This document shows, piece by piece, positions 3,541 to 62,861 of a stretch of DNA of 64,000 nt (its first letter is position 1; each line of letters starts with the position of its first letter). The notes beneath the pieces were generated by a model that worked only from the letters and a program-made list of their open reading frames with translations, did no database searches and was not told the origin of the DNA. This DNA is from Candidatus Eiseniibacteriota bacterium. GTDB taxonomy: Bacteria; Eisenbacteria; RBG-16-71-46; CAIMUX01. The stretch spans positions 37,202 through 101,201 of the forward strand of contig JAXLXQ010000008.1 in NCBI GenBank assembly GCA_046327845.1, in the 5' to 3' direction. A program made the position numbers and the translations under genes.

Positions 3541-3565
3541 TCACGACCCAAGGAACACCAAGGCG

Positions 3566-3596
3566 GGCGGGGCGCCCCATCGTGAGGCCCCGCCCG
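3566..3596. terminator. GC-rich hairpin between convergent genes (gggcggggc-N13-gccccgccc); putative bidirectional intrinsic terminator
   Basis: A 9-bp perfect inverted repeat lies in the 112-bp gap between the end of the + gene at 3540 and the end of the - gene at 3653. There is no U-tract, which is common in high-GC genomes. Confidence 0.4.
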
Positions 3597-3652
3597 TCCC
3601 GTGACCGAGTCCCGCTCGGTCTCTCCGTGCGGAGATGGCGTTTGGGTCGAGA

Positions 3653-4426: not shown

Positions 4427-4431
4427 GGCGC

Positions 4432-4962: not shown

Positions 4963-5310
4963 GGGTTCCTCCAATCGACCGGACGAGTCCGGTCGCGTTT
5001 CTTGAACGTCGACAGGTCGCGAAGATCGGCGCTTCGCGAGCCGAGAGTGGGCGGCCCGCGTTCACTCGCCGTCCGGTGGGCTTGATCGATCGCCATGACA
5101 AGCCTCCAGTGAGAGCAGGGTCACTTCGCTTCGGGAGACTCGGGAGGAGAGGAGGGATCGGCGGCAGAGAGATGCTGGACACCTCGCGGCGGCGCGGTCA
5201 ATCCGCAAAATGCATCCTTCTTCAACTCGCTGGGCCTTGCGGTTTCCGGCTTCGATCAGCCATCTTCTCCCCTCGCCGCGAGCAATCCAGAAGGAGAACA
5301 GCAACTTCGC

Positions 5311-14662: not shown

Positions 14663-14703
14663 CGATCCGATCCTCTGAGGGTTCGCGAATGGATCGCCGG
14701 AAT

Positions 14704-18216: not shown

Positions 18217-18262
18217 CGACTCTCCGCGGTGAATGCCGTGCGTACGAGTGTAGCGCGCGGCC

Positions 18263-21127: not shown

Positions 21128-21267
21128 GACGGTCCAGTGTACCGAAGTCGGGCCGCAAACAACTCCGTCGCATCACGCCCCGATACGTGGATGACCTCGC
21201 TTCCGGGCTCGCGGTCACCCGAAGGCGGTGGGTATGATTGTCGGTACCTAACCCCGAGGATCGATCG

Positions 21268-36748: not shown

Positions 36749-37189
36749 CTACTCCGCCGCCTGCATCGACTCCGCGACCAGCATCCAATCCCCCGCCTCT
36801 GCACGCCGCCACACGCGGAGATATCCCCCCGACTCCGTCCCCGACGTGTAGCTCCCCCAAGTCGCTCCAAGCTCACCGCTCTCCGCCACGAGCGCCCGCA
36901 CCGGCGTCGTCGACACGGCACGGAGAGGTCCAAGTTCGCGCTCACACGCGGTCAGGCCAAGAAACGGCGCATGCCCGCGCCGGAGCAGCCGGCAGTCCGC
37001 CGCCACCCAGCGAGCGCGCGGCTGCCCTTCGCTCGACGCGTCGAACTCGAGGAGAGGCCCCGACTCCGACGCAAAGGTGCGAGTGGAAGCGGCGGGCGCG
37101 TTCACGGTAGCGGGAACGGGAAGCGCCGAGGGGTGGTGATTCCGCCGTCCGCCGCCGCCTTCCAAGAACCGTCCGCCTGCCGCCTCCAC
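36749..37189 (-). CDS. Second DUF4440/NTF2-like domain ORF, possibly the frameshifted continuation of 37102..37845
   Basis: TFASESGPLLEFDASSEGQPRARWVAADCRLL...GGYLRVWRRAEAGDWMLVAESMQ is NTF2-like. It overlaps the upstream ORF by 88 nt in the -1 frame. Confidence 0.45.
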   Translation of the reverse strand: MEAAGGRFLEGGGGRRNHHPSALPVPATVNAPAASTRTFASESGPLLEFDASSEGQPRARWVAADCRLLRRGHAPFLGLTACERELGPLRAVSTTPVRALVAESGELGATWGSYTSGTESGGYLRVWRRAEAGDWMLVAESMQAAE

Positions 37190-37845
37190 ACTGTGAGATA
37201 GACGCCGGCCGCCACGATGCTGTCGCCGGTCGCCTCGGTCCGATAGTGCCAGGGGCCTAGGGTGTAGCCCAACTCACCAGAACGGGCGATATCCGCGGTC
37301 TCCGCCCACCAGCGCAGCGAACCGTCGAGGTCCTCGCGCTTCTCCCAACTCTCGCGCGCGTTGGTCGGCGTCGGTCGGAAGATCACGCCGTCTTCCGCCA
37401 TGAAGGTGAGGAACGCCGCCCGGACTCCGCGGCTCGCCGCATCGGCGCAAAAGGCCTGCTCCACCTCGACCACCGGTCGCACCCGCTCCGAGCCGTCAAG
37501 CACCAGTGCTGCCCTCGCTGAGCCGCCTCCTGCCATCGCCAGCACAGCCATCTCCAGCATGGCCATCGCCGGCGCGGCCATCTCCAGAACGGCCCTCCAG
37601 CTCAGCGTTCGCGCCGATCCAAGCCCAGGTCGCGCAATCGACCGCCTCGATCCCCCGCCGTATATCCACTCGATGACACCCATCGCACGCACTCCACTCC
37701 GGCGCCCTTCGCGGTCCGCCCGCACGGGCTCGAGACGCCGCCGCCATCCCCTCATTGCCGCGCCGCTAGAGGAGCGGGCCGGCGTCGTCCCGAGCGCGTG
37801 CGGGTGGGATGTGGACAGGGTGCGGCGAGCGCCGACCGCCCGCAA
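37102..37845 (-). CDS. DUF4440/NTF2-like (SnoaL-like) domain protein, probably secreted
   Basis: The C-terminal ~120 aa (VEVEQAFCADAASRGVRAAFLTFMAEDGVIFRP...AAGVYLTVWRRQADGSWKAAADGG) are NTF2-like. The upstream part contains signal-like MLEMAVLAMAGGGSARAA. The true start is probably internal. Confidence 0.5.
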   Translation of the reverse strand: MRAVGARRTLSTSHPHALGTTPARSSSGAAMRGWRRRLEPVRADREGRRSGVRAMGVIEWIYGGGSRRSIARPGLGSARTLSWRAVLEMAAPAMAMLEMAVLAMAGGGSARAALVLDGSERVRPVVEVEQAFCADAASRGVRAAFLTFMAEDGVIFRPTPTNARESWEKREDLDGSLRWWAETADIARSGELGYTLGPWHYRTEATGDSIVAAGVYLTVWRRQADGSWKAAADGGITTPRRFPFPLP

Positions 37846-40161: not shown

Positions 40162-40331
40162 CGACACGGGAGAGGCCTGGACGCGAACGCGGGAACGAGG
40201 GACTAGCGGAGTGCAAGCCGGGGTGCGTGACATGGACTTCCTCATTCGTGGATGTGGCCGGATGGGAGCGCGGAGACGCGGGGACAAGTCTACCCGCTCG
40301 CACCGGCTCGCCGCGAGCTATCCTGCGCGCC

Positions 40332-41911
40332 ATGATCGATCTTCTCCTCGGCGAACCGCTCTTGTTGCTCTTCTTGGTGCTCGCCGTCGGCTACGCGCTC
40401 GGTCGCGTCTCATTTGGCGGCGTACAACTCGGCGTGGCCGCGGTGCTCTTCGTCGGTCTCGCCGCGGGCGCACTGGACGAAAGATTCGCGCTCCCTCCAT
40501 TCGTACGAAGCTTCGGGCTCGTCATCTTTGTCTACGCGGTCGGCGTGTCGAGCGGGCCCGGGTTCGTCACCTCGCTTAGGCGGCGCGGCATTCGCGATAG
40601 CGCGTGGGTCGCGGCGCTCCTGCTTCTCGCCGCCGGGTTGGCCGAGATCGCGCGACTCACGCTTCACCTCCCCGCCGGTGTGACTGCCGGCCTCTTCTGC
40701 GGCGCGCTCACCAACACGCCCGCGCTCGCCGCCGTGCTCGAGCGCGTGCCGAAGGGAGATCTCGCGCCGGTGGTCGGCTACTCGGTCGCCTATCCGATGG
40801 GCGCGCTCGGCATGCTGCTCGGCCTGGCGGTGGCGAAGCGACGTTGGCGTTCGGAGCTCGATGCCCTCGCCCGCTCCGGCGCGATCGAGCTGCGCTTCGT
40901 CGTCGTCACGCGCGACGCGGTGGTGGGTCGGCCGGTCGAAGAGCTGCTCCAGGAGTGGCAGGTGCGCGCGCGCTTCGTACGACGGCGGCGCGCGGGACAG
41001 TGGGCGCTGCTCAATCCGAACGAGCCGCTCTTGAAGGGCGACCTCGCGACCGTCGTCGGCCTGCGCGACGCACTCGATCGCGTCACCCGCGAGCTAGGCG
41101 AAGAGTCGGATGAAAAGGTCGAGCTTGGACGGAGCGACCTCGACTTTCGGCGCATCTTCGTGTCGAACGGCGCGGTCGCCGGGCGCTCGCTGGCGGAGCT
41201 CAAGACCCTCTCGCGCTACGGCGCCCTCGTCACGCGCGTGCGCCGCGGCGACATCGACCTCATCCCCGACGGTCGCACCGTGCTCGAACTCGGCGATCGC
41301 GTGCGCGTGGTCGCCCCCCGCGAACGCATGGCCGAGGTCACGCGCTTCTTCGGCGACTCCTATCGCGCGCTCGGCGAGGTAGACGCCGTGTCGTTCGGCT
41401 TCGGCATCGGACTCGGGCTGCTGCTCGGCATGGTGTCGATCCCGCTGCCCGGCGGCACGGTGTTTCGACTCGGGCCCGCCGGAGGCCGCTCGTCGCCGGG
41501 CTGGTGCTGGGCGCGATCGGACGCACCGGGCCGATCGTGTGGCAGTTGCCGTACAGCGCGAGCCTCACGCTTCGGCAACTCGGGCTCGCACTCTTCCTGG
41601 CCGCGGTTGGCGTCAGTGCCGGCACTCCCTTCGTGCGCACGCTCCGCGAGGGTGGCGGGCCGTCGCTCTTCGTCGCCGGCACCATCGTGACGCTCGTCAC
41701 CTCGGCGCTCGCCCTCTGGAGCAGCCGCCGTCTGCTCCACGCGCCGGCCGGCATCGCGATGGGGATGACGAGCGGCGTGCACACGCAGCCGGCGGGGCTG
41801 GCCTTCGCCAACGATGCCGCGCCCGACGAGTCGCCGAATCTGGGCTACGCCAGCGTCTCGCCCGTCGCGACGGTGACGAAGATCCTGCTGGCGCAGGTGC
41901 TGCTGGGATAG
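40332..41911 (+). CDS. YidE/AspT/YbjL-family transporter (two membrane domains flanking two TrkA-C domains), with an apparent -1 frameshift near 41484
   Basis: The first membrane domain is MIDLLLGEPLLLLFLVLAVGYALGRVSFGG.... Two TrkA-C-like segments are present (...VRARFVRRRRAGQWALLNPNEPLLKGDLATVVG... and ...DGRTVLELGDRVRVVAP). The second membrane domain (GRTGPIVWQLPYSASLTLRQLGLALFLAAVGVSAG...) reads in the -1 frame after ...LPGGTVFRLGPAGG. Confidence 0.8.
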
Positions 41912-41942
41912 CCCCACCCTCTCGCCGACGACAGTCGCGCGG

Positions 41943-42389
41943 TCACGCCCCGAACTGCGTCAAATGATGATCAAGGTGCTTGTAGCAGAGTCGCCCCCAC
42001 TCCGCGGACGAGAGCGGGCCGAAGGCCGGGTGCACCGCGCGAGCCTCGCCGCGCGCGACCCGCTCCGCGAGCGCGAGGCAGGTCGCGAGATCCTCGTCCC
42101 ACGAAGATGGCGCCGAGAGGAGCATCTCGGGCGCCGTCTGAACCTTTCCGCGCGGCGCCGCCATACCCGTGTTAACCACGAGGTTCTTGAGCAGCAGCCG
42201 CGTCAGGAGATTGTGCGTCGGGCGGGTGGGCGCGTCACCCAGCGCAACCCGCATTTGGTCGCCCAGGTGACAGAGCATGCGCGGCGCGGTGAGCGTGCCC
42301 CAAGCCGGCGCCGAATCCTTCCGCACGCGTCGCAGTCGATCGAGGATGCGCGCGCGATCCGTTTCGTTGAGCAGAGTGCAGAGTGCCAT
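41943..42389 (-). CDS. DinB/DUF1569-like four-helix-bundle protein
   Basis: The C-terminus is HPAFGPLSSAEWGRLCYKHLDHHLTQFG. The size is ~148 aa. Confidence 0.55.
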   Translation of the reverse strand: MALCTLLNETDRARILDRLRRVRKDSAPAWGTLTAPRMLCHLGDQMRVALGDAPTRPTHNLLTRLLLKNLVVNTGMAAPRGKVQTAPEMLLSAPSSWDEDLATCLALAERVARGEARAVHPAFGPLSSAEWGRLCYKHLDHHLTQFGA

Positions 42390-42486
42390 AGATCCCTCCT
42401 GGTCTGCTCGCGTCCGACCGGGATGATCGGAACGAGCCGGAGCAGGTTAGCACCATTCGTCGCCTCCGCACCCGAAGGTCTCGCTA

Positions 42487-44106
42487 TCAGCGCAGGACGA
42501 TCTTGGTCGCGCTCGATTGCCCGGAGTGAATCAGGCGCGCGAAGTACACCCCACGCGGCGCGCGGCGACCGGCGGCGTCGAGTCCGTCCCACGCGATCAC
42601 ATGGCGACCGGCCGGAAGCTCGGAGTGGACCAGCCTTCGCACGATCGAGCCGTCCGCCGCTGTGATGGACAGATCAACTCGAGTGGCCAGCTCGATCTGG
42701 AAGTGAAGGCTCGCGCTGCTCTCCGCCGGATTGGGTAACGCTACGAGGGGCGTACCCGGTGCCTCGGAAGCAGGGACCGCCACGATGGTGCGGCACTGCA
42801 CGTCGGTGAATCCACCACTGAAGAGCGTGTACGGCGCGGTGTTCGTGACAAACGCCGGCGCGGTGACGACAGGGCCGCGCGCGACGACGTCGAGGCTCAC
42901 AGGCCCGGTCGAGGTCGCAGCCGTGGCGCCGAAGCACCCCGCGCTCCCTGTGCTGTCGGTCTTGAGCAGGAGCAGGCTCGTAAACAGCGGGCCGAAGCTC
43001 TTGGCGGTCCCCGTAATCGCGAACCCACCGTCGGGCATCGGCACGGAGCTGTAGCCCAGCTCTTGATCCCCCGCTCCGAAGGTGCGGCTCAAGAGCACGC
43101 TGCCGACCGCGTCAACGCTGACGAAGTAGCCGTCGAGCAGACCCGCGCCGAAGCTCGAGGTCGCGGCGGTCAAGGCGAACCCACCGCTCGGGGTCATTCT
43201 CATCGACACCTTCGATTCTCCGCCTGGTCCGCCGTAGGTTCGCGCCCACTGCACGTCGCCCGTCGCGTTCGTCTTGATCAGGAGGAAGTCGTTCCCCCCC
43301 GCGCCAAAGCTGATGGTTCGGCCCGCGATCGCGAATCCTCCGTCCGCGGTCTGCACGATCCCGGATCCCTCTTCGGTGCTCGCTCCGCCATAGGTCTTGG
43401 CCCAGAGCAATCCCCCGGTCGCGTCGGTGCGCACGACGAAGATCTTGGGCGCGGCCACGCCGAAGCTGGCGGTCGAGCCGGCGATCGCGAACCCCTGATC
43501 GCTGGTCTGGCAGACCGCGAATCCTTGATCCCCGGCCTCGCCGCCGTAGGTGCGGAGCCAGGAGAGATTCCCCGAGGCGTCGGTCTTGAACAGCAGGAAG
43601 TCGTAGTTACCCGCGCCCAGTTCGCTGGTATACCCCGCCGCAATGCACCCGCCATCGCTCGTGGCCTGGAGGCTCCACAGTTGGTCGGAGTGAGATAGAC
43701 CGTAGGTTCGCGCCCACTGGGTCGCGCCCGCCTCGTTCACCTTGATGAGCACCGCGTCGTCGCTGCCCGCGCCGACGCCATTGGTGAAGCCGCCCACGAC
43801 GTAGCCGCCGCCAACCGCCGGAACGACGCCGAATCCGTATTCGTTGCCGCCGAACTGCCAGCGCCGAGTCCACAGCGTGTCGCCCGCGCTGGTGGTGCGA
43901 ACGAGCAGCACGTCGTCGTTGAAGTTGGCGCCGGCGCGACCAGTGATCGCGTAGCCGCCGCTCGGTGACGCCAGGATCGAGTACCCCTCGGAGTAGCTGC
44001 CGAGGCCGATCGTCTCCTGAAAGGTCGTTTGCGCTGTCGCGTCGCCGGGAGCCCCGGCGAGCAGCGCGCCGAGCAGGACGGCGGCGCGCGCCAAGTTCAA
44101 GAGCAT
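42487..44106 (-). CDS. Secreted repeat protein (~40-aa beta-propeller-like repeats) with a T9SS/FlgD-Ig-like C-terminal domain
   Basis: The signal peptide is MLLNLARAAVLLGALLAGAPGDATAQ. Nine or more repeats follow the pattern DGG[FY]...G.T.SFGAG..D.LL.K....G...W..TYGG. The C-terminus is LPNPAESSASLHFQIELATRVDLSITAADGSIVRRL...GVYFARLIHSGQSSATKIVL. Confidence 0.75.
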   Translation of the reverse strand: MLLNLARAAVLLGALLAGAPGDATAQTTFQETIGLGSYSEGYSILASPSGGYAITGRAGANFNDDVLLVRTTSAGDTLWTRRWQFGGNEYGFGVVPAVGGGYVVGGFTNGVGAGSDDAVLIKVNEAGATQWARTYGLSHSDQLWSLQATSDGGCIAAGYTSELGAGNYDFLLFKTDASGNLSWLRTYGGEAGDQGFAVCQTSDQGFAIAGSTASFGVAAPKIFVVRTDATGGLLWAKTYGGASTEEGSGIVQTADGGFAIAGRTISFGAGGNDFLLIKTNATGDVQWARTYGGPGGESKVSMRMTPSGGFALTAATSSFGAGLLDGYFVSVDAVGSVLLSRTFGAGDQELGYSSVPMPDGGFAITGTAKSFGPLFTSLLLLKTDSTGSAGCFGATAATSTGPVSLDVVARGPVVTAPAFVTNTAPYTLFSGGFTDVQCRTIVAVPASEAPGTPLVALPNPAESSASLHFQIELATRVDLSITAADGSIVRRLVHSELPAGRHVIAWDGLDAAGRRAPRGVYFARLIHSGQSSATKIVLR

Positions 44107-44204
44107 GGTGGACTCCTCTCCTCGAGATGCCGGGGTCGGAAATGGCGGTGGGCGCCACGCGCCGCCTGAGGCCGGCGGAGCGACCCGGGGGTGATGGACC
44201 GCCT

Positions 44205-44597
44205 CTATCGGGGAGAACCAGCCGGGCGAGGAGACGTAACCGGGAAATGTGGGGGGCTGATGGAATCGCTGGATCGAGCCTCAGCGTCGGGTGGCGTTCT
44301 GAGGGCGTCGCTTTTGCCGGTCGGAGGCGGTCTGCCCGGCCCCATGCGAAGCGAGGTGCGGGGCGCGTGCTCCGCTCTCACCGCCTCCGCGGCTAACTCG
44401 GCGCACAACGTGCGATACCCGAGGTGGGCGAGAAGGTAGCTCATCTGGGTCATCGGGAGCTTCACGCGGCGGATCTTCTCCGCTCGCGCTCGTTCGGCAA
44501 CTGGGAGTTGGCTGCTGACGCTGTTGACGATCGCGTCGACATGCATCGCGAAGACCGCGCCGGTCCACCCGCCGGTCGCACCGCGCAACAGGCGCAC
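44205..44597 (-). CDS. Hypothetical protein; the frame is open upstream to ~44740, so the start is uncertain
   Basis: The composition is protein-like (...LEEIVRPNWIARKSQEIVEFTTLLFSEAISEAAGRARVRLLRGATGGWTGAVFAMHVDAIVNSVSSQLPV...). No family was recognised. Confidence 0.35.
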   Translation of the reverse strand: MRLLRGATGGWTGAVFAMHVDAIVNSVSSQLPVAERARAEKIRRVKLPMTQMSYLLAHLGYRTLCAELAAEAVRAEHAPRTSLRMGPGRPPPTGKSDALRTPPDAEARSSDSISPPHFPVTSPRPAGSPR

Positions 44598-44741
44598 CCG
44601 AGCGCGGCCGGCGGCCTCGCTAATCGCTTCGGAGAAGAGCAGCGTGGTGAACTCGACGATCTCCTGCGACTTTCTCGCGATCCAGTTTGGCCGGACGATT
44701 TCCTCCAGCGAGTCGAGCAGCGGACCTTCGCGGTCCAGGCG

Positions 44742-45089
44742 TCAGAGCCGGTGCGTCACGGTCTGGAACAGGTATGGAGTCGCCGACGCAAACGCAACCA
44801 GCAGCAGCCAAGCGACGACCGTGGGGGCAGCGGGAAAGAGCTGAGTTTTGCTCAACAGGTAGCGTAACGGCAGGGCCGCATACCATCCGGTCAGGGCGAG
44901 CAAGAAGGAGATCCCCGCCGAGTACAGGGCCGCAGGGACGAGCCGCCACTCGAGCCACTGCGCCAACGGCAGCTTCCACGGATTCCGCTGATAGTGCGCC
45001 GTCACCGCAGAACCCATAACGAACAGGAACGACCCCGCGGCGAGCCCAGATAGCACGACCGAGATCGGCGGATCAAAGCTTGCGGCCAT
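44742..45089 (-). CDS. Small integral membrane protein (3-4 TM helices)
   Basis: The hydrophobic segments are VVLSGLAAGSFLFVMGSAV, LVPAALYSAGISFLLALTGWYAALPL and TVVAWLLLVAFASATPYLF. Confidence 0.4.
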   Translation of the reverse strand: MAASFDPPISVVLSGLAAGSFLFVMGSAVTAHYQRNPWKLPLAQWLEWRLVPAALYSAGISFLLALTGWYAALPLRYLLSKTQLFPAAPTVVAWLLLVAFASATPYLFQTVTHRL

Positions 45090-45141
45090 ACGCGTGCCCG
45101 TCCGGAAGTACTACTTCTGCGTCAGTGGGTGTGCCGCGCGC

Positions 45142-45393
45142 CTATCGAGCGATGCCCCACCTTCGTTCATCGTCGGCATACTCGGCCTCGCAGTGATGCG
45201 GTCGGACGCTAAGCACTCCCGCGCGGCCGAGCGCCTGCAGGACCCGCAGCACGTCGGCGTTCCCGCACACCAGCTCGCGCGCGAGTTCGCTCACGCATTC
45301 CGGACCGTGCGTCCGAAGGCGCTCCAGGATCCGCCGCGCGATCTCAGCATCCGAGAGTAGAGGCGTCGATTGTTGTAAAGCCGGGGTCTTCAT
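45142..45393 (-). CDS. Small winged-helix-like protein (DUF3253-like), 83 aa
   Basis: It reads MKTPALQQSTPLLSDAEIARRILERLRTHGPECVSELARELVCGNADVLRVLQALGRAGVLSVRP.... The rest of the long track ORF upstream is junk. Confidence 0.4.
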   Translation of the reverse strand: MKTPALQQSTPLLSDAEIARRILERLRTHGPECVSELARELVCGNADVLRVLQALGRAGVLSVRPHHCEAEYADDERRWGIAR

Positions 45394-45730
45394 ATGAACA
45401 ACATGGCATCCTACGCCCCCGAGGGGCTGAATAGCGACCCGCGCATGCGAGATCCATCCCGCATCATGCGCGGCGTCGCGGCGAAAACTCGCACGTCGTG
45501 ATCGAGCTGGCAAGTCCCTTGCCATGGCCCGAGCCGGAAACCGCGCCACGCTACCGAAGCACTGACGCGACCACAACGGGATTGGCTTGCGACGCTCTTC
45601 GCGCCCGCTGTTTGCCAGTCCGTGCCGTTGTCCGCCATCGGACCGGGTGCTAGTCTCGCGCTTGGCGCGCCGGACCCGCCAAAACAGCCGGTGCGGAACA
45701 GCAGCTAGAGGAATCCAGCCAGAGGAACCC

Positions 45731-48634: not shown

Positions 48635-49201
48635 GTGGCGAAGCCTGAAGAAGGCATGGCGAGCATGATCGCCAACTTGAAGACGAACACCGGCAAGAGT
48701 CTCGAACAGTGGGTGAAGATCGCACGGGCGGCGAAGATCTCGAAGCACCTCGAGCTGGTGAACTACATGAAGCGTGAGCACGGGTTCACCCATGGTTACG
48801 CCGCGCTGGTCGCGCGATCGACGCTCCAGACCGCGTCGAGCTTCGCCGAGAGCGGCGACGCGCTGATCGACGAGCAGTACGCCGGCACCAAGGCCGCGCT
48901 CCGGCCTCTCTATGACGCACTCGTCGCCAAGATCTCGAAGTTCGGCGGCGACGTCGAGTTCTCGGCCAAGAAGGCGTACGTCAGCGTGCGGCGGAAGACG
49001 CAGTTTGCCATCCTGCAGCCTTCGACCGCGACGCGCCTCGACGTCGGGATCAAGCTCAAGGGCGCCGCGCCCAGCGGTCGCCTCGAAGTGGCCGGCAGCT
49101 GGAATCAGATGGTCACGCACCGCGTGCGCGTCGAGTCGGCCAAGGAGATCGACGCCGAGCTGGTCGCGTGGCTCAAGGAGGCGTACTCATCGGCGGGATG
49201 A
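48635..49201 (+). CDS. DUF4287 + DUF5655 two-domain protein
   Basis: The N-terminal part (MASMIANLKTNTGKSLEQWVKIARAAKISKHLELVNYMKREHGFTHGYA) is DUF4287-like. The C-terminal part (YVSVRRKTQFAILQPSTATRLDVGIKL...VESAKEIDAELVAWLKEAY) is DUF5655-like. The true start may be the ATG at 48656. Confidence 0.7.
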   Translation: MAKPEEGMASMIANLKTNTGKSLEQWVKIARAAKISKHLELVNYMKREHGFTHGYAALVARSTLQTASSFAESGDALIDEQYAGTKAALRPLYDALVAKISKFGGDVEFSAKKAYVSVRRKTQFAILQPSTATRLDVGIKLKGAAPSGRLEVAGSWNQMVTHRVRVESAKEIDAELVAWLKEAYSSAG

Positions 49202-50669
49202 TCCGCGGAGGGCGGCGCGGCGCGGCAGGCGCGGTCTCGCGCGCTGCCCGGCTCTTGGCGTCGCTCGGACTCCTCGGCGCCCTCGCCTTCGCGGCGGTCG
49301 ATGTCGCGCTGCCCCACGCCGCATCTGCCGCCGAGGAAACGCTCATCCCCTGGGACAACGGCGGCCACGTCGAGCGACTCGACGCCCGCCTCCGCGATCG
49401 CGCCGCGCTCTGGCCCGGGCACTACGACGGCTTTGTCGAAGCGCGGCTCCTGCGTGCGAGCGACGGGACGACCGTGCTTCAGGTGCTCCGTCGGGATCAT
49501 GGACAGACGATGCAGGAGCGCGTGCCGCTCGAGGCCGCGGAGGTCGAGAGCCTGCGCGCCGCGGTCGGTGGTGCGATCGTCGCGCTCGCGCAGGAGGAGG
49601 CCCAGAGGGTCGACGCGCGCGGGCCGTTCCTCGCGGCGACCACGCTCACCGGACTCGGCTTCTACTCGTGGGGCGTGCCGGTCGGCGCGAAGCTGGAAGG
49701 CAAGGCCGCCGTCGGCACCGGCATGCTGTGCGCCGCCGCCGCGTTTGCCGTGCCGTACGCGGTGTCGTCGCAGGTGCATGTCACGCCCGGCATGGCGCAC
49801 CTCGCGTCGTCGGGGTTGTCGCGTGGGGCGGCGACCGGCGCGCTGGTGCATCGCGTCGTTGCTGGGCCGCAGGGCGACAGCGACTCCGGGATCGCCGCCG
49901 CAGTCGTTGGAAGCGTCGCCGAAGCGGCGGCCGGCTTCGAGTGCGCGCGGCGCTTCAAGCTCGATCCCGGGCGCGCCCACTTGATTGAGGCGGGCGGCGA
50001 CCTCGGCGCGCTCGCCGGCGTCGAAACCGAACTCGCCTTCCGGATCGGAGAGCGCGAGGAAGAGACGCTGCCCGGAGGCGGCACCACCTCCGGCGCCGAC
50101 CGCGGCATGGAGTACGTCACCGTGCTCGCCGGCAAGTTCGCGGGTCATGCACTCGGCGCGTGGTATGGCACGCGCGCCGCGCGACGTGGGGCGATGCGGA
50201 GGTGTTTCGCACCGCGTCGCTGCTCTGTCAGCTCACTGCGCTCACGCTGTGGGATCAGGGGACGGATAATAAGGAAGCGATCACGGGCGCGGTGCTCGGT
50301 GCGTCGCTCGTTGGGCCGTACGTCGGGCATCGTTTAACACGCGGGACCGATTTTCGGCCGACGCCGGCGGTGTTGGTTGATCTAAGCACGATCGCGGGTG
50401 GGGCGCTCGGGATGGCGGGGGTGTTTCTGCTGGCGCAGGATGATCCGGAGCCGGAGCAGTATTTGCTCGCGGGGACGACGGGGGCGCTGGCGGGGTTTGG
50501 GTTGAGTTATGCGGGGTTTCGGGGGAAGGCGGGGCGGGGGCTTTCGGGCGTGGAGATGGGCGTGGTGCCGGTGGCGCTCGCGGACCGAGCGGTGGGGCGT
50601 GCGAGCGCGCAAGTGAGGAGTGCGCGGGGCAACGTTCGGCCCGGGGTTGGCTTCACCGCGCGATTCTGA
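49168..50669 (+). CDS. Signal-peptide protein, possibly outer-membrane, whose 3' third reads in the -1 frame after ~50175; the 3' third also has atypical G/T-ending codons
   Basis: The signal peptide is LLASLGLLGALAFAAVDVALPHAASAAEE. ORF 49168..50337 and ORF 50160..50669 join plausibly at ...HALGAWYGT|RAATWGDAEVFR.... The C-terminus ends ...VGFTARF, with an aromatic residue as in beta-barrels. Confidence 0.4.
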
Positions 50670-51178
50670 GTCGGCTGTGTGGAGGCGGGAGTGGTTCCGC
50701 TACGGTGAGGGCTGGCGATTGGCCTTCGTTCGCGAGTGCGCGCCCTCTACCGTTACGCGCGCACCGACTCCCTGAATTCTCGGTTGTCGGAGAGCCGAGG
50801 CTGACGCACAATTGCACCGCCAACCGATTGACAGCCTCGTTGGTGGAGGGGCCATGCCCGGGATCGTCGCCGCGTCGATCCGATCGCCTTCGCGTCAGGC
50901 GTTGGGGTCGCGTGATCCAGAATACGAAGTCGCCATCGAGCGCCGGCGGCGCGGGCCGATAGGCCGCTGGGCGCGATACCTTAAACTAGATAACGTCACC
51001 GCCACGAGGCTGGGAGCACCGGGCTCGCAGTGGGTCGCGCGGACTTGCACTGCGGGCGGCTCATCCGCCCGAGTGTTACGTAGGCGAGTTACGCTGACGG
51101 GCTTACAGCGCTCAGGTGATTACACGGACCAATCGAATAGAAGTTAGGCGGTCTTCCGTGCTCGCATGCGGGGTTTCT

Positions 51179-51616
51179 ATGACCAGACGTGTTGATCTTG
51201 CCGGCGCTTCAGTTCTGTTACTCTTCCTCGTGCTTTCCGGCGGATGTGAAGACTCTACCGCGCCGTCAAATCACGATCCAGTCGTCACGTCGATACTCGC
51301 CTTTCCCATGCAAGTTCAGGAATCCGATTCATTTGCAGTCATTGTGTCAGCATATGATGCTGACGGTGACTCGCTCTTCTACGACTGGATCTGCTCGAAT
51401 CACAAGGCAACAATAGCAGGAGCACCAGCCGAGAACCCGTATCGTCTTATCCACACTCGGGATAATCTCGCGACACTCTACGCTCCGGATAGTCTCGCCT
51501 ATTCACCAAGCGAGGCAACTGTCTTCTGTGATGTTCGCGATGGCAGGGGCGGCCTGAAAACCGTCTACACCTTCGTCCTAATAACCGACAGGAGTGGCAA
51601 GCGATTGGGGCGATGA
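51179..51616 (+). CDS. Small lipoprotein with a He_PIG/cadherin-like (DADGD) Ig domain, carried on a lower-GC gene
   Basis: The signal and lipobox are MTRRVDLAGASVLLLFLVLSGGC. The body has VSAYDADGDSLFYDW. Codon usage is AT-richer than the surrounding genome (tca, aat, tat, ata, att). Confidence 0.55.
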   Translation: MTRRVDLAGASVLLLFLVLSGGCEDSTAPSNHDPVVTSILAFPMQVQESDSFAVIVSAYDADGDSLFYDWICSNHKATIAGAPAENPYRLIHTRDNLATLYAPDSLAYSPSEATVFCDVRDGRGGLKTVYTFVLITDRSGKRLGR

Positions 51617-51742
51617 CCCGACTAACTGCTGCATGGAGCTGCCGGCGGGCGCCGCCATCGTGGGTGAGAGACCTGCTGCGACCGGCCTTGCGCCCGCCGC
51701 AGCTCATGCATACGTTAGGCGGACACCAACCAGAGGTCGCGG

Positions 51743-52702
51743 GTGACAGTGCGGTATCGAGTGGTCACAACCCTATTGGCGGTCCTGGCACTCGCAGCTG
51801 GCGTGCCTCGGCTCGCCGGAGGGCAGACCGCCTGGCAGCCATCGCCAGGACACAGGCAGATTCCGATCTGGCCAGGGGTGCCGCCTGAGGCACGGCCAGC
51901 CGAGGGGCCCGAGGTGTCTGGCACCGTGGTGGACGCCGCTGGTCGAGCAAAGCTCGTAGGCGGTCGTCCGTGGGTCTACGTCGCCAAAGTCTCTGAGCCG
52001 ACGATGACCGTCTACCCGCCAGTTGGATCCAACACGGGAGCGGCGGTGGTTGTGTTTCCCGGCGGTGGCTACAACATTCTGGCGATCGATCTCGAGGGCA
52101 CGGAAGTCTGTGACTGGCTGACATCCAAGGGCATGACGTGTGTGTTGTTGAAGTACCGCGTCCCCTGCGCCAAGACCGGTGAGTATGGGGACTGCCGGAC
52201 GGCTCTACAGGACGCGCAGAGAGCTCTGGGGCTGCTGCGCTTCCAGGCCGCGCAGTGGCAGATCGACCCGCGCAAGATTGGGGTGCTTGGCTTCTCCGCC
52301 GGCGGGCACATGGTTGCCGCGATCAGCACACACTTCGAGAAGCGGCTCTATGACCCTGTGGATGAGGCTGACCTGGAGAGCTGCCGGCCCGATTTCGCGA
52401 TCGCACTCTATCCCGGGCACCTGGCGGTCCGCGCCAGGAACTTCGAGTTGAACCCCGACATTCAGGTCACCAACCGGACTCCACAGACCTTCTTGCTTCA
52501 TGCGGAGAATGACCGCATTGATCCGGTAGAAAACACCACCGTATATCAAGCAGCGCTGAGGAAGGCTGGAGTTCCCGTAGAGATGCACCTGTACAAGAAG
52601 GGCGGGCATGCGTTCGGACTACGGCGTACAGGCTCTCCGATCACCGAATGGCCGCAGTTGGTCGAGAAGTGGCTCGAAGCGATCGACATGATCCCGCAGT
52701 AA
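51743..52702 (+). CDS. Secreted alpha/beta-hydrolase esterase (BD-FAE/acetylesterase-like)
   Basis: The signal peptide is MTVRYRVVTTLLAVLALAAGVPRLAGGQ. The nucleophile elbow is GFSAGGH, and His is present in GGHAFG. The GC content (~62%) is below that of the rest of the window. Confidence 0.8.
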   Translation: MTVRYRVVTTLLAVLALAAGVPRLAGGQTAWQPSPGHRQIPIWPGVPPEARPAEGPEVSGTVVDAAGRAKLVGGRPWVYVAKVSEPTMTVYPPVGSNTGAAVVVFPGGGYNILAIDLEGTEVCDWLTSKGMTCVLLKYRVPCAKTGEYGDCRTALQDAQRALGLLRFQAAQWQIDPRKIGVLGFSAGGHMVAAISTHFEKRLYDPVDEADLESCRPDFAIALYPGHLAVRARNFELNPDIQVTNRTPQTFLLHAENDRIDPVENTTVYQAALRKAGVPVEMHLYKKGGHAFGLRRTGSPITEWPQLVEKWLEAIDMIPQ

Positions 52703-53152
52703 ACACGACCAGCGCACCGCACGCCGCTGTCAGTCAGACACGAGGCACCGACATGCTGCGGTGTTCGCCATCTTAACCGAGCCGCCTAACGAGTCGTTGC
52801 AGCTGACGAGCGATCTCCGGATCGCGCGCACTGCGCACGCGCGCCGATCTATGTCCGCAGTAGTTCAGACCTGAATTGACACCCAGGAATGGGCGCTGAG
52901 CATCGCCTTGCGACCGGAGGAGCCCGGAGGTTACGTCACGATGCTCGACCGCGATGCTTCACTGTCAACTCAGGCCGGAACTACTGCAGATCACCGTTGG
53001 CGCCCTCATGAGTCGGACCTAGCATGCCACCTCAGCGTCGGCCATCCAGTGCCACCGATGCATCAAATCAGGAAGCGGCTCGCACTCCACCGTCGCCAGC
53101 CAAGCCCGCGGCGCCGACGCGGAACCCCGAGGAGAAGCTCAGAAGGCCCCCC

Positions 53153-54175
53153 ATGCCCAACCCAAGTCCCGCGACCGACTCCCCCGCCGCACGCCTGAGC
53201 CAGATGCTCAACTACAACCTCACGCAAATGGTCTACGTCGCGGCCAAGCTGCGTCTGCCTGACCTCCTCGCCGAAGGAGTAAAGAGCGTCGACACTCTCG
53301 CCGTCACTGTCGGCGCCCATCCCGGCTCGCTGCATCGCCTGCTGCGCGCCCTCGCCCGCCAAGGCGTCTTCGCGGAAGAAGCACCGGGAGTCTTCGCCCC
53401 CACACCAATGTCGACGCTGCTCCGATCCGACGTCCCCGACTCGATGCGCCCCTTCGCGCTGTCCTACGGCGAACCGTGGTAGTGGAGTGCATGGGGCGCT
53501 TTGCTGCACAGCGTGCAAACAGGGGAGACCGCCTTCGACTCGATCCACGGTATGGGGTTGTTCGACTATCTCCGTCAATCCCCGGAGGCCACCGAGATCT
53601 TCCACGCCAACATGACCGCGATGACGGTCCAGGAGGCGCAGGCGGTGGTGGCGGCCTACGACTTCTCGAACACCCGCGTCCTCGTGGATGTCGGGGGAGG
53701 CCACCGAGCATTGGCCAACGCCATCCTTCGAGCTCATCCCCAGCTTCACGCTTTGGTCTTCGACCAGCCCTCCGTCATCGAGGGCACACGCATCCGCCTT
53801 GAGTCCGCGGGCGTTCTCGACCGCTGTGCAGTCCGGGGCGGCAGCTTCTTCGATTCCGTACCAGCGGGCGGCGACACCTATACCCTCAAGGACATCCTGC
53901 ACGACTGGGATGACGACGCGTCGCTCGCCATCCTGCGCAACTGCCGCCGCAGCATGAGCAGCTCGGCCCGACTGCTCGTCATCGAGCGCGTCATTCCGGT
54001 CGGCAACGATCCGATGATCGGAAAGCTGATCGACATCGGTATGTTAGTGCTGACCGGCGGGCAAGAGCGCACCGAAGCGGAGTATCGCGCATTGCTGGAG
54101 GCCGCCGGTTTCCGTCAGAGTGCGATCGTGGCCGCAGGCGAAGGGACCAGCGTCGTCGAGACGATCCCGGTCTAA
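53153..54175 (+). pseudogene. Class I SAM-dependent O-methyltransferase (plant/actinomycete COMT-like, with dimerisation domain) carrying an in-frame TAG at 53480-53482
   Basis: The dimerisation domain (LNYNLTQMVYVAAKLRLPDLLAEG...LHRLLRALARQGVFAEE) and the catalytic domain (LVDVGGGHRALANAILRAHPQLHALVFDQP...DTYTLKDILHDWDDD...) are in the same frame. They are separated only by TAG within ...LSYGEPW*WSAWGALLHSVQTGETAFD. Confidence 0.7.
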
Positions 54176-54229
54176 GCGCCTCGCTTGACCTGGAAGAACG
54201 CGGGCGCCGTCTGCAGAAGGGTGGGATCG

Positions 54230-55267
54230 ATGTCCGACTTGATCGACCTGCGGTCCGATACCGTCACCAAACCCTCACCCGCAATGCGCGCGGCCATGGC
54301 CGCTGCGCCCGTGGGGGACGACCAGTTCGGCGAAGACCCAACCGTCAACCTTCTGCAGGAGCGTGTCGCTGGCCTGCTGGGGAAGGAGTCGGCGCTGTGG
54401 CTGCCGACGGGCACGATGGCCAACCAGGTCGCGCTGCGAGTGCTCACGCGGCCCGGCGATGACGTGATCGTGAGTCAGGAGAGCCACGCTGTCTGGCACG
54501 AGACCGGCGCGGGGGCGGTCAATGCAGGGGTGCAATTCACGGCCATTGGTAAGAAGGGCCTCTTCACGCCCGAAGAGTTTGTCGCCGCGATCAAGCCGCG
54601 CGGGCATCTCCTCTATCCGCCGACCGCGCTGGTCGAGATCGAGAACACGCACAACCGCGCGGGCGGGGTCGTCTTCCCGCGCGAGGCGGCCGAGCGCATC
54701 TATGCGGCGGCCGCCGAGCGAGACATCGCGACGTATCTGGATGGGGCGCGGCTCTGGAACGCGGCTGTTGCTTCCGGTCATCGTCCGCTTGAGCTCGCGG
54801 CGCCTTTCGACCTGGTGTCGGTAGCGCTGTCAAAAGGCCTGGGCGCTCCGGGCGGTTCGTTGCTCGCCGGATCGACGGCGGTCATCCAGCGCTGCGTTCG
54901 TTACCGCAGGATGTTCGGCGGCGCCATGCGGCAGGTCGGGATCTTCGCGGCCGCCGGGCTCTACGCCCTCGATCACAACCTGGGGAGAATTGCCGAAGAC
55001 CACGCCAATGCTCGCTTGATCGCGGAGCACCTTTCCTCGAGCGAAAGGATCGCGTTGGACTTGGCCACCGTGCAGACGAACATCTTGGTCTTCGACCTGG
55101 GCGAGGGCGCGCCTGATGCGGCCTCAGTGGTCGCGCAAGCCAAGGAGCGCGGCGTTCTGGTCTTGGCCTTTGGCCCGCGAACGATTCGGGCCGTCACTCA
55201 TCCCGACGTCGCTCGGGAGCAGTGCGAACGAGCGGCTGAGGTGCTTCTGGATATCGTGGGGAATTAG
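54230..55267 (+). CDS. ltaE: Low-specificity L-threonine aldolase (PLP-dependent)
   Basis: The motifs are [24 protein letters not shown]...[19 protein letters not shown]...[11 protein letters not shown]...[15 protein letters not shown]. Confidence 0.88.
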
Positions 55268-59105: not shown

Positions 59106-59591
59106 ATGAGCCTCTCGACTGACCTTGTGGGCACCTGGATGCTCGAGTCGCGCATTGACGTGGACGGGGCCGGAGTTCCCCACCTCGATCCGCTCTTGGG
59201 CGAAGATCCGATCGCTCTCTTGTTCTACGACCGCTCGGGGCACTTCGCCGCGCAGTTCATGAGGCGCGATCGCTCGGTCGTCGTGGCGAGCGGGCCGGCC
59301 AACGCGGCGAACAACACGCAGGCACAGGGTGGCTACGACGCCTACTTCGGCACCTACAGCGTCGACGATGCGCGCGGCGTCGTGACGCAGCAGCTGCTCG
59401 GATCGCTCTCCGCTGGCAACGTCGGCATGGTGCTCTCGCGGGCGATGGAGGTGAGGGGCGACGCGCTGATCATCCGCTTGGAGACCACTGCGTACGACGG
59501 CGTGCCGGTGGTGCGCACGCTCACCTGGCGTCGGCTCCGAGAGAACGCGCTCGAGCGTGGTTCAGGCGGAACGAGCGGGACCGCGAGCTGA
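59106..59591 (+). CDS. Lipocalin-like domain protein
   Basis: DLVGTWMLESRIDVDGAG... is the lipocalin-like LVGTW motif. The size is ~160 aa. Confidence 0.5.
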   Translation: MSLSTDLVGTWMLESRIDVDGAGVPHLDPLLGEDPIALLFYDRSGHFAAQFMRRDRSVVVASGPANAANNTQAQGGYDAYFGTYSVDDARGVVTQQLLGSLSAGNVGMVLSRAMEVRGDALIIRLETTAYDGVPVVRTLTWRRLRENALERGSGGTSGTAS

Positions 59592-59595
59592 GCCC

Positions 59596-60311
59596 ATGCA
59601 GCCGGACGCGAAGCGGATCGTGGAGGAGGGATACGACCGCATCGCCCATCTCCACGCGGAGTGGGCAGCGCGCGTGCGCTCCGAGGAACGCGCCCGCTAC
59701 CTCGCCGCGTTCTGCGCGCGGGTCCCTGCCGGCGCGAGTGTCCTGGAACTGGGGTGCGGCGCTGGCGGCGCGGTGACGGACGCTCTCGCCGCTCGCTACC
59801 ACCTCACCGCCATCGATCTCTCGCGGCGCGCGATCGAAGCGGCGCGACTTCGCACCCCGCTCGCTCGATTCCTTCATGAAGACATGACGGGAGCCGACTT
59901 CCCGGCCGCGAGCTTTGCGGGAATCGTCGGGTTCTACTCGATCCTCCACGTCCCGCGCGAGGAGCAGGCCGCGCTGCTCTCACGGATCGCCAGTTGGCTC
60001 CAAGTCGGCGGCCTGTTCATGGCAGCCCTCGGCACGGCCGACGAGGCGCGGAGCTACGAAGACAACTGGTTGGGCGTCCGATGGTCTGGAGTTCACACGA
60101 CACCGCGACAACGTGCAGCATGGTGCGGGCCGCAGGCTTCGAGATCGAGAGCGCGGTGGTCAAGTCCGCGGATGAAGATGGCCAGGCGGTGTCGTTCCTT
60201 TGGATCATCGCGCGAAGGCCCGGCGCGGCGGTCGACGCCAATAGCGGCTCCTTGCTTCGAACCGGAGCTGGTCCCAGCGGTGACGGCGAATCACACGCAC
60301 GGGAGGAATAG
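59596..60311 (+). CDS. Class I SAM-dependent methyltransferase with an apparent -1 frameshift near 60070-60080
   Basis: The SAM motif is VLELGCGAGGAVTDAL. The N-terminal part (to ...SYEDNWLG) is in the 59557 frame. The C-terminal part (PMVWSSHDTATTCSMVRAAGFEIESAVVKSADEDGQAVSFLWIIARRP) is in the 59994 frame. Confidence 0.7.
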
Positions 60312-60393
60312 CCGCGGCGTCGAGTCAAGACTGTTGCTCCTCAGACGGCCAATTCACGGACAATTGTGGAAGCGCTTCTCGCGGAGGTAGCCA

Positions 60394-61680: not shown

Positions 61681-62770
61681 TGTTCATCACCGTCGGTGAC
61701 GCGCAGATCTTCTCGGTGGCGTTCGCCCGCCAAGCGCCCCGGCCATCCTCGGCATCGGCGGGTGGATCGGCGTGGTTTCGTGGGCGCTCCCTTCGCTCGA
61801 CTTCCTCCGCCACCTGGTACACGGTTGCTTACGACCACCGAGGTTCGGGCGCCACTGCTGCGCTGCTCCATCGATCACGGTCGAAGCGTTCGACCGCCGA
61901 CTTTCGCGGTGATGGATGCCTACAGGCTCACGCGCTGCTATCTCGCGGCGGAATCGGCCGGCGCGGTGGACTGGGCAAGCTGGAGTGCCGCGTCGAGCGT
62001 CCAGATCGCATCGCCGGGCTGATCCTCGTCGACGGGCACTGTGGCGGCGGCGTTCGCGGCGACGACGACCCCTTCCTCGTCGGGCTGATGTCCAACTACT
62101 CGCCACGCTTGATGCCTTCGTGGAGGCCTGCGTGCCTGAGCCCGACCGCGATTCCGATCAAGCGCTGGGGTCGTCAGATTCTCGGGCGAGCGGAGCGCGA
62201 CGCAGCGATCGCATCATCGCGGCGGCCAGCGTGGCCGACTTCGGCGATCGTCTCCGTATTCGAGCAGCCCACATTGATTCTTCGCCGCGAGCGCGACTCG
62301 ATCAGCCGTCGACTCCGCGCTGCTGAGCGCGACGCTGCCGCGCGCGGCTTGCACTTGCCGGGCGCCGGTCGCCGTGCCGACGATGACCTCGCCTGGACGA
62401 GGTCGCACGCGAGATCGACCGCTTCCTCCGCGCGACGTTCGCCCAAGGTTGAGGAGCGACGAGGAGACCCGATGCACCGCTACGTCTACCTGGGAGTTCG
62501 AGCGCCGAGCGCCGCAACGAGGGCCAGGCGCCACTACGGCCCGAACGGCACCTGGGCGCAGCTCTTCCGCCGCGCCCCGGGCTACCTCGAGACGCTCCTC
62601 CTCGAAGATCAACACGCGCCCACCCGCTTCCTGACGATCGATCGATGGGCGAGAGCAGCGAGGCACACGAAGCATTCATGCGCGCGAGTCGATCGGAGTA
62701 CGAACGCATCGACCGACTCTGCGAGGCGCTCACTGTCAGCGAGCGGAGCCTCGGCTCATACTGGGAGCTA
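61681..62770 (+). pseudogene. Degraded alpha/beta-hydrolase-fold protein; fragments across frames
   Basis: The fragments are MFITVGDAQIFSVAF..., ...YTVAYDHRGSG... and ...PDRIAGLILVDG..., interleaved with out-of-frame stretches. Confidence 0.4.
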
Positions 62771-62861
62771 GCCTCCGACGGGGATTGACCGCGAGTGAAT
62801 CGATCGTGATCGCGCACTCGCGTGGCGTGAGCCACCCCAGGATCGCTACACTCCCCAGCCG

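Follow-up and report, generated by a model that had tools for sequence, protein, structure and literature searches.

Is the block between positions 50,190 and 53,500 of a 64-kb stretch of Candidatus Eiseniibacteriota DNA (assembly GCA_046327845.1, contig JAXLXQ010000008.1) a single piece of foreign DNA, an assembly artifact, or a set of features with separate histories? The complete stretch of 64,000 nucleotides (nt) is called the window below, and all positions refer to it. A preliminary description, made from the letters alone, had recognized in this block a G-rich coding stretch, an AT-richer non-coding stretch, a lipoprotein gene, and an esterase gene, with an O-methyltransferase gene at the distal edge, and had suggested a horizontally acquired insert or a mis-join. 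We conclude that the block is probably composed of three separate features and not of one insert: a native membrane-protein gene with a G-skewed end, a conserved non-coding element, and two captured gene cassettes (Table 1). The acquired DNA is limited to positions 51,144 to 52,790 and consists of two integron-type cassettes; this is ordinary horizontal transfer by a known mechanism.

Composition of the block

The whole window, analyzed in 480-nt segments, served as compositional background. The G+C content (GC) is 0.679 with a standard deviation (sd) of 0.032, and the mean GC skew is -0.009 (sd 0.070). This sliding-window analysis confirmed an outlier block at about the positions that had been described: the strongest GC skew of the window lies at 50.2-50.7 kb and the lowest GC at 51.1-51.6 kb. 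The eleven segments with the highest skew all fall within 50.10-50.88 kb, with the peak of +0.352 at 50251 (about 5 sd), and the GC minimum is 0.529 at 51121-51600 (about -4.7 sd). For 130 codons, the third-position skew (G3-C3)/(G3+C3), in which G3 and C3 are the fractions of codons ending in G and C, is +0.56 to +0.65 in the G-skewed coding stretch, hereafter the G-block, vs. a window mean of -0.09 (sd 0.14, maximum about +0.35). The preference for ggg, gcg, gtg, ttt, tat, and gat codons that had been described for this stretch agrees with the G3, C3, and T3 values of 0.76, 0.04, and 0.20, respectively, in codons 401-450 of the membrane-protein gene. The 478-nt non-coding stretch that follows is AT-richer, as described, to a mild degree (GC 0.644, about 1 sd under the mean).

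Codon usage was scored as log-likelihood z-scores with 14 long genes of the window as the reference. The G-block scores -2.9, the lipoprotein gene -6.9, the esterase gene -2.0 to -4.7, and the methyltransferase gene -1.4 to -2.5; the flanking GNAT acetyltransferase and sigma factor genes score -0.4 and +0.4, respectively.

Table 1. Features of the block and of its surroundings, with positions in the window.
Feature	Positions	Strand	Basis
Membrane-protein gene, 491 aa after restoring the missing G	49198..50669	+	full-length homologues, synteny
Single-base deletion (GCCGGC read as GCC-GC)	50178..50179	.	comparison with L014
G-skewed, C-avoiding stretch (G-block), last ~150 codons (3' third of the gene), with Gly/Ala-rich hydrophobic segments	50190..50650	+	
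Putative G-quadruplex motifs, n=3 (G3+ N1-7, four tracts)	50396-50421, 50471-50501, 50513-50548	+ (coding strand)	motif scan
Unconstrained spacer, 110 nt after the stop, 71% identical to L002	50670..50779	.	alignment to L002
Conserved non-coding element, 368 nt	50780..51147	.	alignment to L002
attI-like end: repeats GTTACG at 51075 and 51088, core GTTAGGC 51143-51149	51075..51149	+	sequence
Cassette 1, 571 nt: 35-nt leader, lipoprotein ORF, attC	51144..51714	+	breakpoint 51147, next core site 51714
Lipoprotein ORF, 145 aa, GC 0.532, GC at third positions (GC3) 0.54	51179..51616	+	sequence
attC of cassette 1, 101 nt, R'' GACTAAC, R' GTTAGGC	51620..51720	+	imperfect palindrome
Cassette 2	51715..52790	+	core sites, esterase homology
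Secreted alpha/beta-hydrolase (esterase) ORF, GTG start, GC 0.627	51743-52702	+	family profiles
Inverted GTTAGGCGG copy (top strand CCGCCTAAC, RYYYAAC type), right end of the insert	52782..52790	-	sequence
Imperfect palindrome, 131 nt, 24-nt arm cores GCAGTAGTTCnGnCCTGAnTTGAC	52857..52987	.	folding z = -3.75
O-methyltransferase gene, dimerisation and Methyltransf_2 domains	53153..54175	+	profile matches
Overlapping ORFs	9300-10103 / 10055-11275 / 11053-12081 / 11933-13156	+	high-GC3 frame switches
Overlapping ORFs	13178-14809 / 14704-18720 / 18263-21172	-	high-GC3 frame switches

Two integron-type cassettes

The acquired DNA has cassette structure, is delimited by homology breakpoints, is foreign in composition, and is colinear in a second assembly. 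Its borders carry the 9-mer GTTAGGCGG, which contains the core GTTRRRY and occurs three times in the window vs. 0.38 expected; all three copies lie within 1.65 kb. The copy at 51143 is located where the homology to L002, a related contig from another sample, ends. The copy at 51714 is located where the homology to contigs L007 and L008 begins, and the third, inverted copy (52782-52790) follows the esterase gene. The alignment of the window with L002 stops at 51147, inside the first core site. The DNA homology to L007 and L008 comprises the esterase gene and about 30 nt upstream only; it starts at 51712 and 51713, at the second core site.

In cassette 1, a putative attC site follows the open reading frame (ORF) and is bounded by R'' and R' boxes; it has the hairpin layout of attC sites, and the borders of the cassette lie at G|TT. 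Folded as DNA, the bottom strand of this site reaches -33 kcal/mol (z = -4.2). In this fold, the R box has 5 bp, the spacers are 3 nt long and unpaired, and the L stem contains two bulges of one base each. The same layout is found in four sites of contig L009 and in one site of contig L010, and the R boxes of these attC sites exhibit a compensatory C-G to A-U change. L009 (positions 1-5382; ENA ERZ27284154, GC 0.33) is an array of cassettes in which no fewer than four canonical attC sites were found (296-395, 869-996, 4053-4173, and 4621-4682). Its cassettes encode a homologue of the lipoprotein, a protein with CBM and CarboxypepD_reg domains, a Por_Secre_tail protein (type IX secretion), and a DUF4279 protein.

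The product of cassette 1 is probably a small secreted protein with a signal peptide, a lipoprotein as judged from its N-terminus. Its family is small. The nine homologues are 47-71% identical to it; Cys23 and the hydrophobic N-terminus are invariant in all nine, the lipobox (LSGGC) is atypical, and the family shares the motif D-x-D-G-D-S-L-F-Y-D-W (DGDSLFYDW). A structural model of moderate confidence, with weak structural matches, predicts one immunoglobulin-like beta-sandwich. The homologous genes have a GC of 0.31-0.34 and are located inside attC arrays on contigs with a GC of 0.33-0.45; an identical protein (P0135) is encoded behind different upstream cassettes in L009 vs. L010. The lipoprotein gene of the window, with a GC of 0.53 in a genome of 0.68, was most likely imported from a lineage of lower GC and has since been ameliorated in part.

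The esterase of cassette 2 matches the Pfam families Abhydrolase_3 (6.8e-15), Peptidase_S9 (1e-12), and BD-FAE (8.4e-12) and has the nucleophile elbow GFSAG (G-x-S-x-G). Its match to the NCBIfam model PaeX (196 bits) is under the cut-off of 550 bits, and the protein is not an equivalog; among structures, it matches PDB entry 6a6o, an esterase/lipase-like protein, at 4.4e-41. More than 100 protein clusters, some of them named Gemmatimonadota or Thermoanaerobaculia, are 74-88% identical to it. Such similarity across phyla appears too high for vertical descent, and the gene would be shared horizontally. Its GC equals that of its homologues (about 0.64). In L007 and L008, GTTAGGC or GTTAGAC is found about 28 nt before the esterase start codon, and because this upstream core site is shared with both contigs we regard the esterase gene as the remnant of a cassette. 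The inverse core at the right end of the insert is read as the sole remnant of the attC of this cassette. As to the taxonomic affinity of the two proteins, which had been proposed as a check, relatives of the lipoprotein are located on contigs of 33-45% GC, and those of the esterase are spread across several phyla.

The recombination event itself we infer. The cassettes would have been inserted at the G|TT of the GTTAGGC core by IntI-type recombination. The first would be the lipoprotein cassette, with its attC intact and from a family otherwise found on low-GC contigs; the second would be the esterase cassette, drawn from a widely shared pool and with its own attC truncated. Since there is no integrase in the window, the integrase would have acted in trans or been lost.

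Several observations weigh against this interpretation. The R'' box GACTAAC departs at one position from RYYYAAC, and the site was called by its core sites and fold layout, not by a covariance-model score. It is the single intact attC present. At 52782-52790 there is only the inverse core and no hairpin (z = 0.1 to 0.4), the esterase homologues in L007 and L008 are likewise without an obvious downstream attC, and the esterase gene could merely lie beside arrays and not be a cassette. A tblastn search of the 64-kb window with an IntI1 sequence as the query gave a best E of 0.83, and the six-frame translation of 50670-51150 had no Pfam match that would indicate an integrase remnant. The neighboring ORFs contain no recombinase domain.

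The lack of an integrase, the single attC-like hairpin, and the lack of an attC behind the esterase gene, here and in L007 and L008, would also be expected if both genes had been acquired horizontally without an integron, through homologous or illegitimate recombination, with the GTTAGGCGG copies and the hairpin as remnants of a terminator or repeat. We consider this unlikely. The excess of the 9-mer over its expected number coincides with three independent homology breakpoints, homologues on unrelated contigs, of low GC as well as of 64% GC, are flanked by the same core, the hairpin follows the layout specific to attC that five sites of L009 and L010 also show, and the same cassette is found after different neighbors in L009 and L010.

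Relation to known integrons

Complete integrons, clusters of attC sites with no integron integrase (CALIN), and single attC sites lacking an integron integrase (SALIN) have been defined previously, and cassettes can be inserted at genomic 5'-GWT-3' sites (PMC4889954; bioRxiv 10.1101/2022.09.11.507474). A SALIN is a single attC that lacks an integron integrase (bioRxiv 10.1101/2022.09.11.507474). Isolated cassettes (SALIN and small CALIN) result when IntI inserts cassettes into attG sites of a genome (Cury et al. 2016, PMC4889954; Loot et al., bioRxiv 10.1101/2022.09.11.507474). Within the window, there is no intI gene beside an attI site, as in a complete integron, and one intact attC plus one core remnant do not make a CALIN. 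By the published definitions, the locus fits a SALIN, here an isolated cassette pair, because neither an integrase nor a remnant of one was found in the window.

As in other SALIN, the ORFs are promoterless and each follows a GTTRRRY core, one canonical attC hairpin is intact, the insertion after G|TT fits 5'-GWT-3', no integrase is nearby, and the cargo is not antibiotic resistance. The locus differs in that two related lineages carry different first cassettes at an identical junction behind the conserved 368-nt element, the second cassette here has lost its attC, and the host is an uncultured Candidatus Eisenbacteria metagenome-assembled genome. Because different first cassettes occupy one junction behind a conserved element, the site is more similar to an attI platform than to a random attG. 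With a complete sedentary chromosomal integron (intI, promoter Pc, attI, and array), the locus shares a conserved platform followed by variable cassettes in the same orientation, and a core site at the junction. In contrast to such an integron, a co-oriented membrane-protein gene is present where intI is expected, there is neither an intI gene nor a pseudogene, and no promoter was recognized.

The locus is a natural case, in an uncultured phylum, of chromosomal integron cassettes without an integrase in the window. Two related lineages with different cassettes at one junction provide the type of evidence that the genome-insertion route of cassette spread, a recent proposal, calls for, and two neighbors annotated as "hypothetical" can be labelled integron cassettes.

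The conserved non-coding element

The element between the membrane-protein gene and the first cassette ends at the cassette junction. It is 90.2% identical to L002, vs. 68-77% for the third codon positions of neighboring genes (p = 4e-12 against the N-terminal part of the membrane-protein gene; 6e-5), and one stretch of 89 nt differs from L002 by a single substitution. The spacer that precedes the element looks neutral, because its identity to L002 falls in the range of nearby third codon positions (62-77%).

The element was not recognized as a known type of sequence. As a gene or pseudogene it was rejected: the substitutions are distributed 13/13/10 over the codon phases, and a six-frame Pfam search was empty. 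A 97-codon ORF that ends in the TAG of the core site was dismissed as well, its changes being mostly non-synonymous. Rfam gave no match at gathering thresholds in the whole window, or at E up to 10 in 50100-51300, and the tRNA/tmRNA search found none. A structured RNA is not indicated by folding (z of -1.47 on the plus and +0.09 on the minus strand; +0.32 for 50190-51150), and the consensus folds, computed from two sequences only, were given no weight. No further copies of the element were found in other loci, in the rest of the window, or in viral, plasmid, or phage collections, and no sigma-70 promoters were found in 50000-53200.

At the attI-like end of the element, the crossover G|TT of the core falls between 51143 and 51144, and there is no hairpin pairing. 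Two direct repeats precede the core, which we take to be similar to the IntI-binding repeats of attI1. Past this junction, the gene found in the window is not the one found in L002, which suggests that the element acts as an attI-like site or as a preferred genomic insertion site (an attG hotspot). The attI function we infer from the core site, the two GTTACG repeats, and the comparison with attI1; attI sites have no general consensus.

Behind the same element, L002 contains a different gene (2732-3364; at least 151 aa) that starts 180 nt past a GTTAGCA core-like junction. This gene had no match in Pfam or PADLOC, and its RNRVAH motif merely recalls, as we presume, that of HEPN nucleases.

The native membrane-protein gene and the assembly

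The G-block, which had been counted as part of the insert, is not a separate ORF. It continues a gene that starts at 49198 and that is split in the record by a one-nucleotide deletion. In L014, an independently assembled Logan contig from run SRR26348421 of the same sample, 4,821 of 4,822 positions equal the window between 49,837 and 54,657, and the sole difference is an extra G at 50178; two Logan contigs of this run match the window exactly or nearly. The deletion separates ORFs 49168-50337 and 50160-50669. In L014 the frame is open and the protein uninterrupted, and L002 has an A at the position equivalent to the missing G. The homologues P0001 (86% identity, 481 aa) and P0002 (72%, 459 aa) align over both pieces. 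The first ORF is identical to the NCBI protein U0527_03845, encoded on a 120-kb contig.

The protein has no Pfam or NCBIfam family match. The gene order gcvP, DUF4287/DUF5655 gene, and membrane-protein gene is kept in five related contigs, L002 to L005 among these, and because of this synteny we regard the membrane-protein gene as native and vertically inherited in Candidatus Eisenbacteria. Downstream of it, the synteny is different in each relative. Scans of genomes and metagenomes for closer relatives of the gene yielded only relatives at 74% and 44%.

The idea of a horizontal insert spanning 50,190-53,500 survives for the lipoprotein and esterase genes (51,144-52,790) and not for the two ends of the block. 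At the left, the G-skewed stretch is the end of a vertically inherited, syntenic gene and shares its skew with the intact L002 orthologue. At the right, the methyltransferase gene has marginally atypical codon usage and lies about 360 nt past the last cassette remnant.

That the entire block is nevertheless one horizontally acquired island is very improbable. Every part of it departs, as such an island would, from the remaining window in its composition or its codon usage; however, they are unlike one another (G3-rich at normal GC, GC of 0.53, and GC of 0.63), and the homology breakpoints at 51147 and 51712 contradict a single unit. Positions 50,190-51,147 are colinear with L002 at 85-97% identity, after which a different gene follows in L002. 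The G-block encodes the best-conserved domain of its gene, in which codon usage is normal over the 5' two-thirds, and its protein identity to L003 and L004 (76%, vs. 71% for the 5' part) indicates divergence that is no greater. A chimeric assembly, with joins near 50.2 kb and near 53 kb between sequences of different organisms, deserves practically no credence: the frameshift at 50178 lies exactly at the change in codon usage and the record has other single-base indels, whereas the separately assembled contig of the same run is colinear over 49,837-54,657, L002 from a different sample has the same 5' gene part joined to the G-block, and the junctions at 51143 and 51714 are recombination core sites and not arbitrary joins. 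The suggested mis-join is excluded because L014 spans every suspected junction and is colinear across them.

The frameshift at 50178 is a consensus error or a minor variant, not the mark of a pseudogene, because L014 is intact and a second short-homopolymer deletion occurs at 41486. There, CCC is read as CC (41485-41486), which breaks an Asp-Al_Ex/TrkA_C transporter gene (~40149-41950) whose frame is intact in L003 and L005. The two deletions are of the same kind, and the record therefore probably holds more short-homopolymer errors. For annotation, the membrane-protein gene recorded as a truncated ORF of 389 aa is intact, and short-homopolymer deletions in the record break genes.

The high-GC3 frame also switches repeatedly among long overlapping ORFs of the same strand, at 7.9-13.2 kb on the plus and at 13.2-21.2 kb on the minus strand (Table 1). 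Further indel errors may have broken up very large genes into these overlapping ORFs of 7.9-21.2 kb.

The G-skewed 3' end of the membrane-protein gene

In the G-block, C-ending codons are replaced by G-ending codons at four-fold sites and by T-ending codons at two-fold sites. The G3/C3 values of the C-terminal part are 0.62/0.15 in the window and 0.60/0.18 in L002; the skew is absent from L003 (0.37/0.43), L004 (0.37/0.41), and L005 (0.30/0.53). Third-position changes were polarized with L003 and L004 as outgroups. Among 40 ancestral C3 sites, 11 were retained, 15 changed to G, and 13 changed to T; none of the 28 ancestral G3 sites changed to C. The shared derived third-position changes are +28/-3 for G and +0/-29 for C. 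The N-terminal part of the gene follows the usual trend, towards C.

In the weakly constrained C-terminal tail, the first and second codon positions gained G as well (+10/-0). Past the stop codon, the GC skew of the spacer is +0.10 in the window and -0.11 in L002, and the skew is gone in both genomes. At the 5' edge of the G-block, the window lost C where L002 keeps the outgroup state, which suggests that the recoding went on once the two lineages had separated.

At third positions, the G-block is identical to L002 at a fraction of 0.87 vs. 0.68 for the N-terminal part (p = 1e-4), which suggests, short of proof, extra constraint on the synonymous sites of the G-block; the 3' half of the DUF4287 gene, however, equals the G-block in third-position identity to L002 (0.80-0.91). 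Only two genomes, the window and L002, carry the skew.

The G-block holds three of the five canonical G-quadruplex motifs of the 64-kb window, all putative and recognized at the motif level; the first (50396-50421) is the only one strictly retained in L002. An antisense ORF at 50382-50612 was rejected as a by-product: A-ending codons are nearly absent from the sense strand, so antisense stops cannot arise. The second-strongest skew of the region lies at 53000-53450, where the plus strand is C-rich (-0.24 to -0.26) over the methyltransferase gene's untranslated leader and 5' end; the minus strand carries a G-quadruplex motif there (53147-53170). At 37400-37700 the skew on the plus strand is -0.29. 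The coding strand is G-rich in this interval, the 5' part of a minus-strand gene (37102-37845), and the skew is milder than that of the G-block.

Proposed causes of the G skew

The force behind the skew acts at the nucleotide level, is strand-specific, and is bounded by the ORF. In the lineage of the window and L002, the sense strand of the last ~150 codons has undergone a directional loss of C, which gave way to G at sites where all four bases are synonymous and to T at sites where the choice is limited to pyrimidines. The loss of C produced the G runs and the G-quadruplex motifs, and the shift ends at the stop codon.

As its cause we tentatively favor selection on the transcript, with low confidence. 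The G-block is C-poor and G-rich and would be slowly decoded; its sense RNA would make a poor substrate for Rho and its antisense RNA an ideal one. Rho utilization (rut) sites, as modelled in RhoTermPredict, span 78 nt or more of C-rich, G-poor RNA in which C exceeds G and recurs at regular intervals; a pause site comes after it, and termination depends on Rho (PMC6407284). On the antisense strand, 50.25-50.65 kb contains about 2 to 4 times as much C as G (from a GC skew of +0.3 to +0.6), far over the threshold ratio of 1; in contrast, the sense RNA is C-poor. The stretch differs from rut sites in its location inside a translated gene, and the resemblance is compositional only.

Conserved rare-codon clusters occur in membrane-protein genes. 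The G-block is similar to these in its switch, over ~130 codons and across hydrophobic segments, from C-ending to G- and T-ending synonyms, which is common to two diverged lineages. By standard wobble rules, G- and T-ending codons require other tRNA isoacceptors or G:U wobble. However, codon usage is normal in the hydrophobic segments that come earlier in this protein, and weakly constrained non-synonymous positions also drift to G, which codon selection does not explain.

The main rival to transcript selection is a functionless, local, strand-asymmetric mutation bias, e.g., deamination of C on the non-template strand in a region prone to R-loops or G-quadruplexes, combined with the genome-wide drive towards G+C. 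An excess of G over C and of T over A on the coding strand is the classical signature of single-strand exposure, the first and second positions of the tail gain G too, the three G-quadruplex motifs lie on the non-template strand, and stable G3 sites alone would raise the identity between lineages. Two points make this explanation rather unlikely: in neither genome does the skew extend past the stop codon, even though the unconstrained spacer beyond it would be co-transcribed, and C-to-G changes are as frequent as C-to-T changes, which deamination alone does not yield.

The G-block could also be an imported replacement of the 3' end: a mobile element that also brought the conserved element would have integrated into the gene in the ancestor that the window shares with L002. 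In this manner, the 3' end of icd is replaced in E. coli by the element e14 and by phage 21. The change of codon usage in mid-gene is abrupt, the G-block and the element co-occur in the window and L002 and are both missing from L003 to L006, and both are more alike between the two lineages than the flanking DNA is. Such an import is improbable nonetheless, because neither a second copy of the 3' end nor an integrase was found in the window (none within 13 kb downstream), and the protein divergence of the block is not elevated; a tblastn search of the window with the C-terminal 161 aa matched just the gene itself. Furthermore, positions 50546-50779, between the conserved patches, are at neutral divergence (62-71%), which argues against one recent tract, and the C losses at the 5' edge in the window suggest an ongoing process. 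We know of no donor genome with a C3 near 0.05.

Because the G-block and the element are found together in the window and in L002, and neither is present at four more distant orthologous loci, one may ask whether they belong together. In this scenario, the element would be an integrase-less attI-type landing pad, fixed behind the membrane-protein gene, taken as a housekeeping gene, in one Eisenbacteria clade, and the G-block would have co-evolved with it as a read-through module. The sense strand would keep Rho off, so that the promoter of the membrane-protein gene would drive the promoterless cassettes, and the antisense strand would end transcripts that leave the cassettes. We hold this scenario to be a long shot. 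If selection did shape the G-block, its synonymous sites would reflect a function at the nucleic-acid level; a confined, shared, C-avoiding recoding of a 3' end is unusual.

Flanking genes and other variable spots

The 131-nt palindrome between the cassette remnant and the methyltransferase gene is unique in the window. It was rejected as an attC site, its GTT and AAC being in the wrong arms. An inverted repeat (51146-51169 / 53511-53534) was considered for the ends of an island and discarded, since the methyltransferase gene is continuous across the second arm. The internal stop that had been described for the O-methyltransferase gene was confirmed: an in-frame TAG (53480-53482) separates the dimerisation and Methyltransf_2 domains in both assemblies. 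Either this is a true nonsense mutation, or two separate pieces are expressed from the gene.

No mobility functions were recognized among the genes further right, which encode threonine aldolase, a GNAT acetyltransferase, an extracytoplasmic function (ECF) sigma factor, an aspartyl protease, a ChrB_C protein, and a lipocalin-like protein. A small gene with an ABM domain (antibiotic biosynthesis monooxygenase-like; 62473-62785) has an apparent frameshift near 62650. In L004, a homologue of this gene is located about 500 nt after the membrane-protein gene; the region that is variable relative to L004 may therefore extend over 50.7-62.4 kb, well outside the two cassettes. A class I methyltransferase ORF (59557-60387) has atypical codon usage (z = -3.25), and its C-terminal third looks out of frame.

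A second variable spot is located nearby. The interval 41950-45600, from the transporter gene to gcvP, is absent from L003 and L005, in which both genes are close neighbors; in the window it holds a 596-aa protein with a FlgD_ig domain and two small ORFs on the minus strand.

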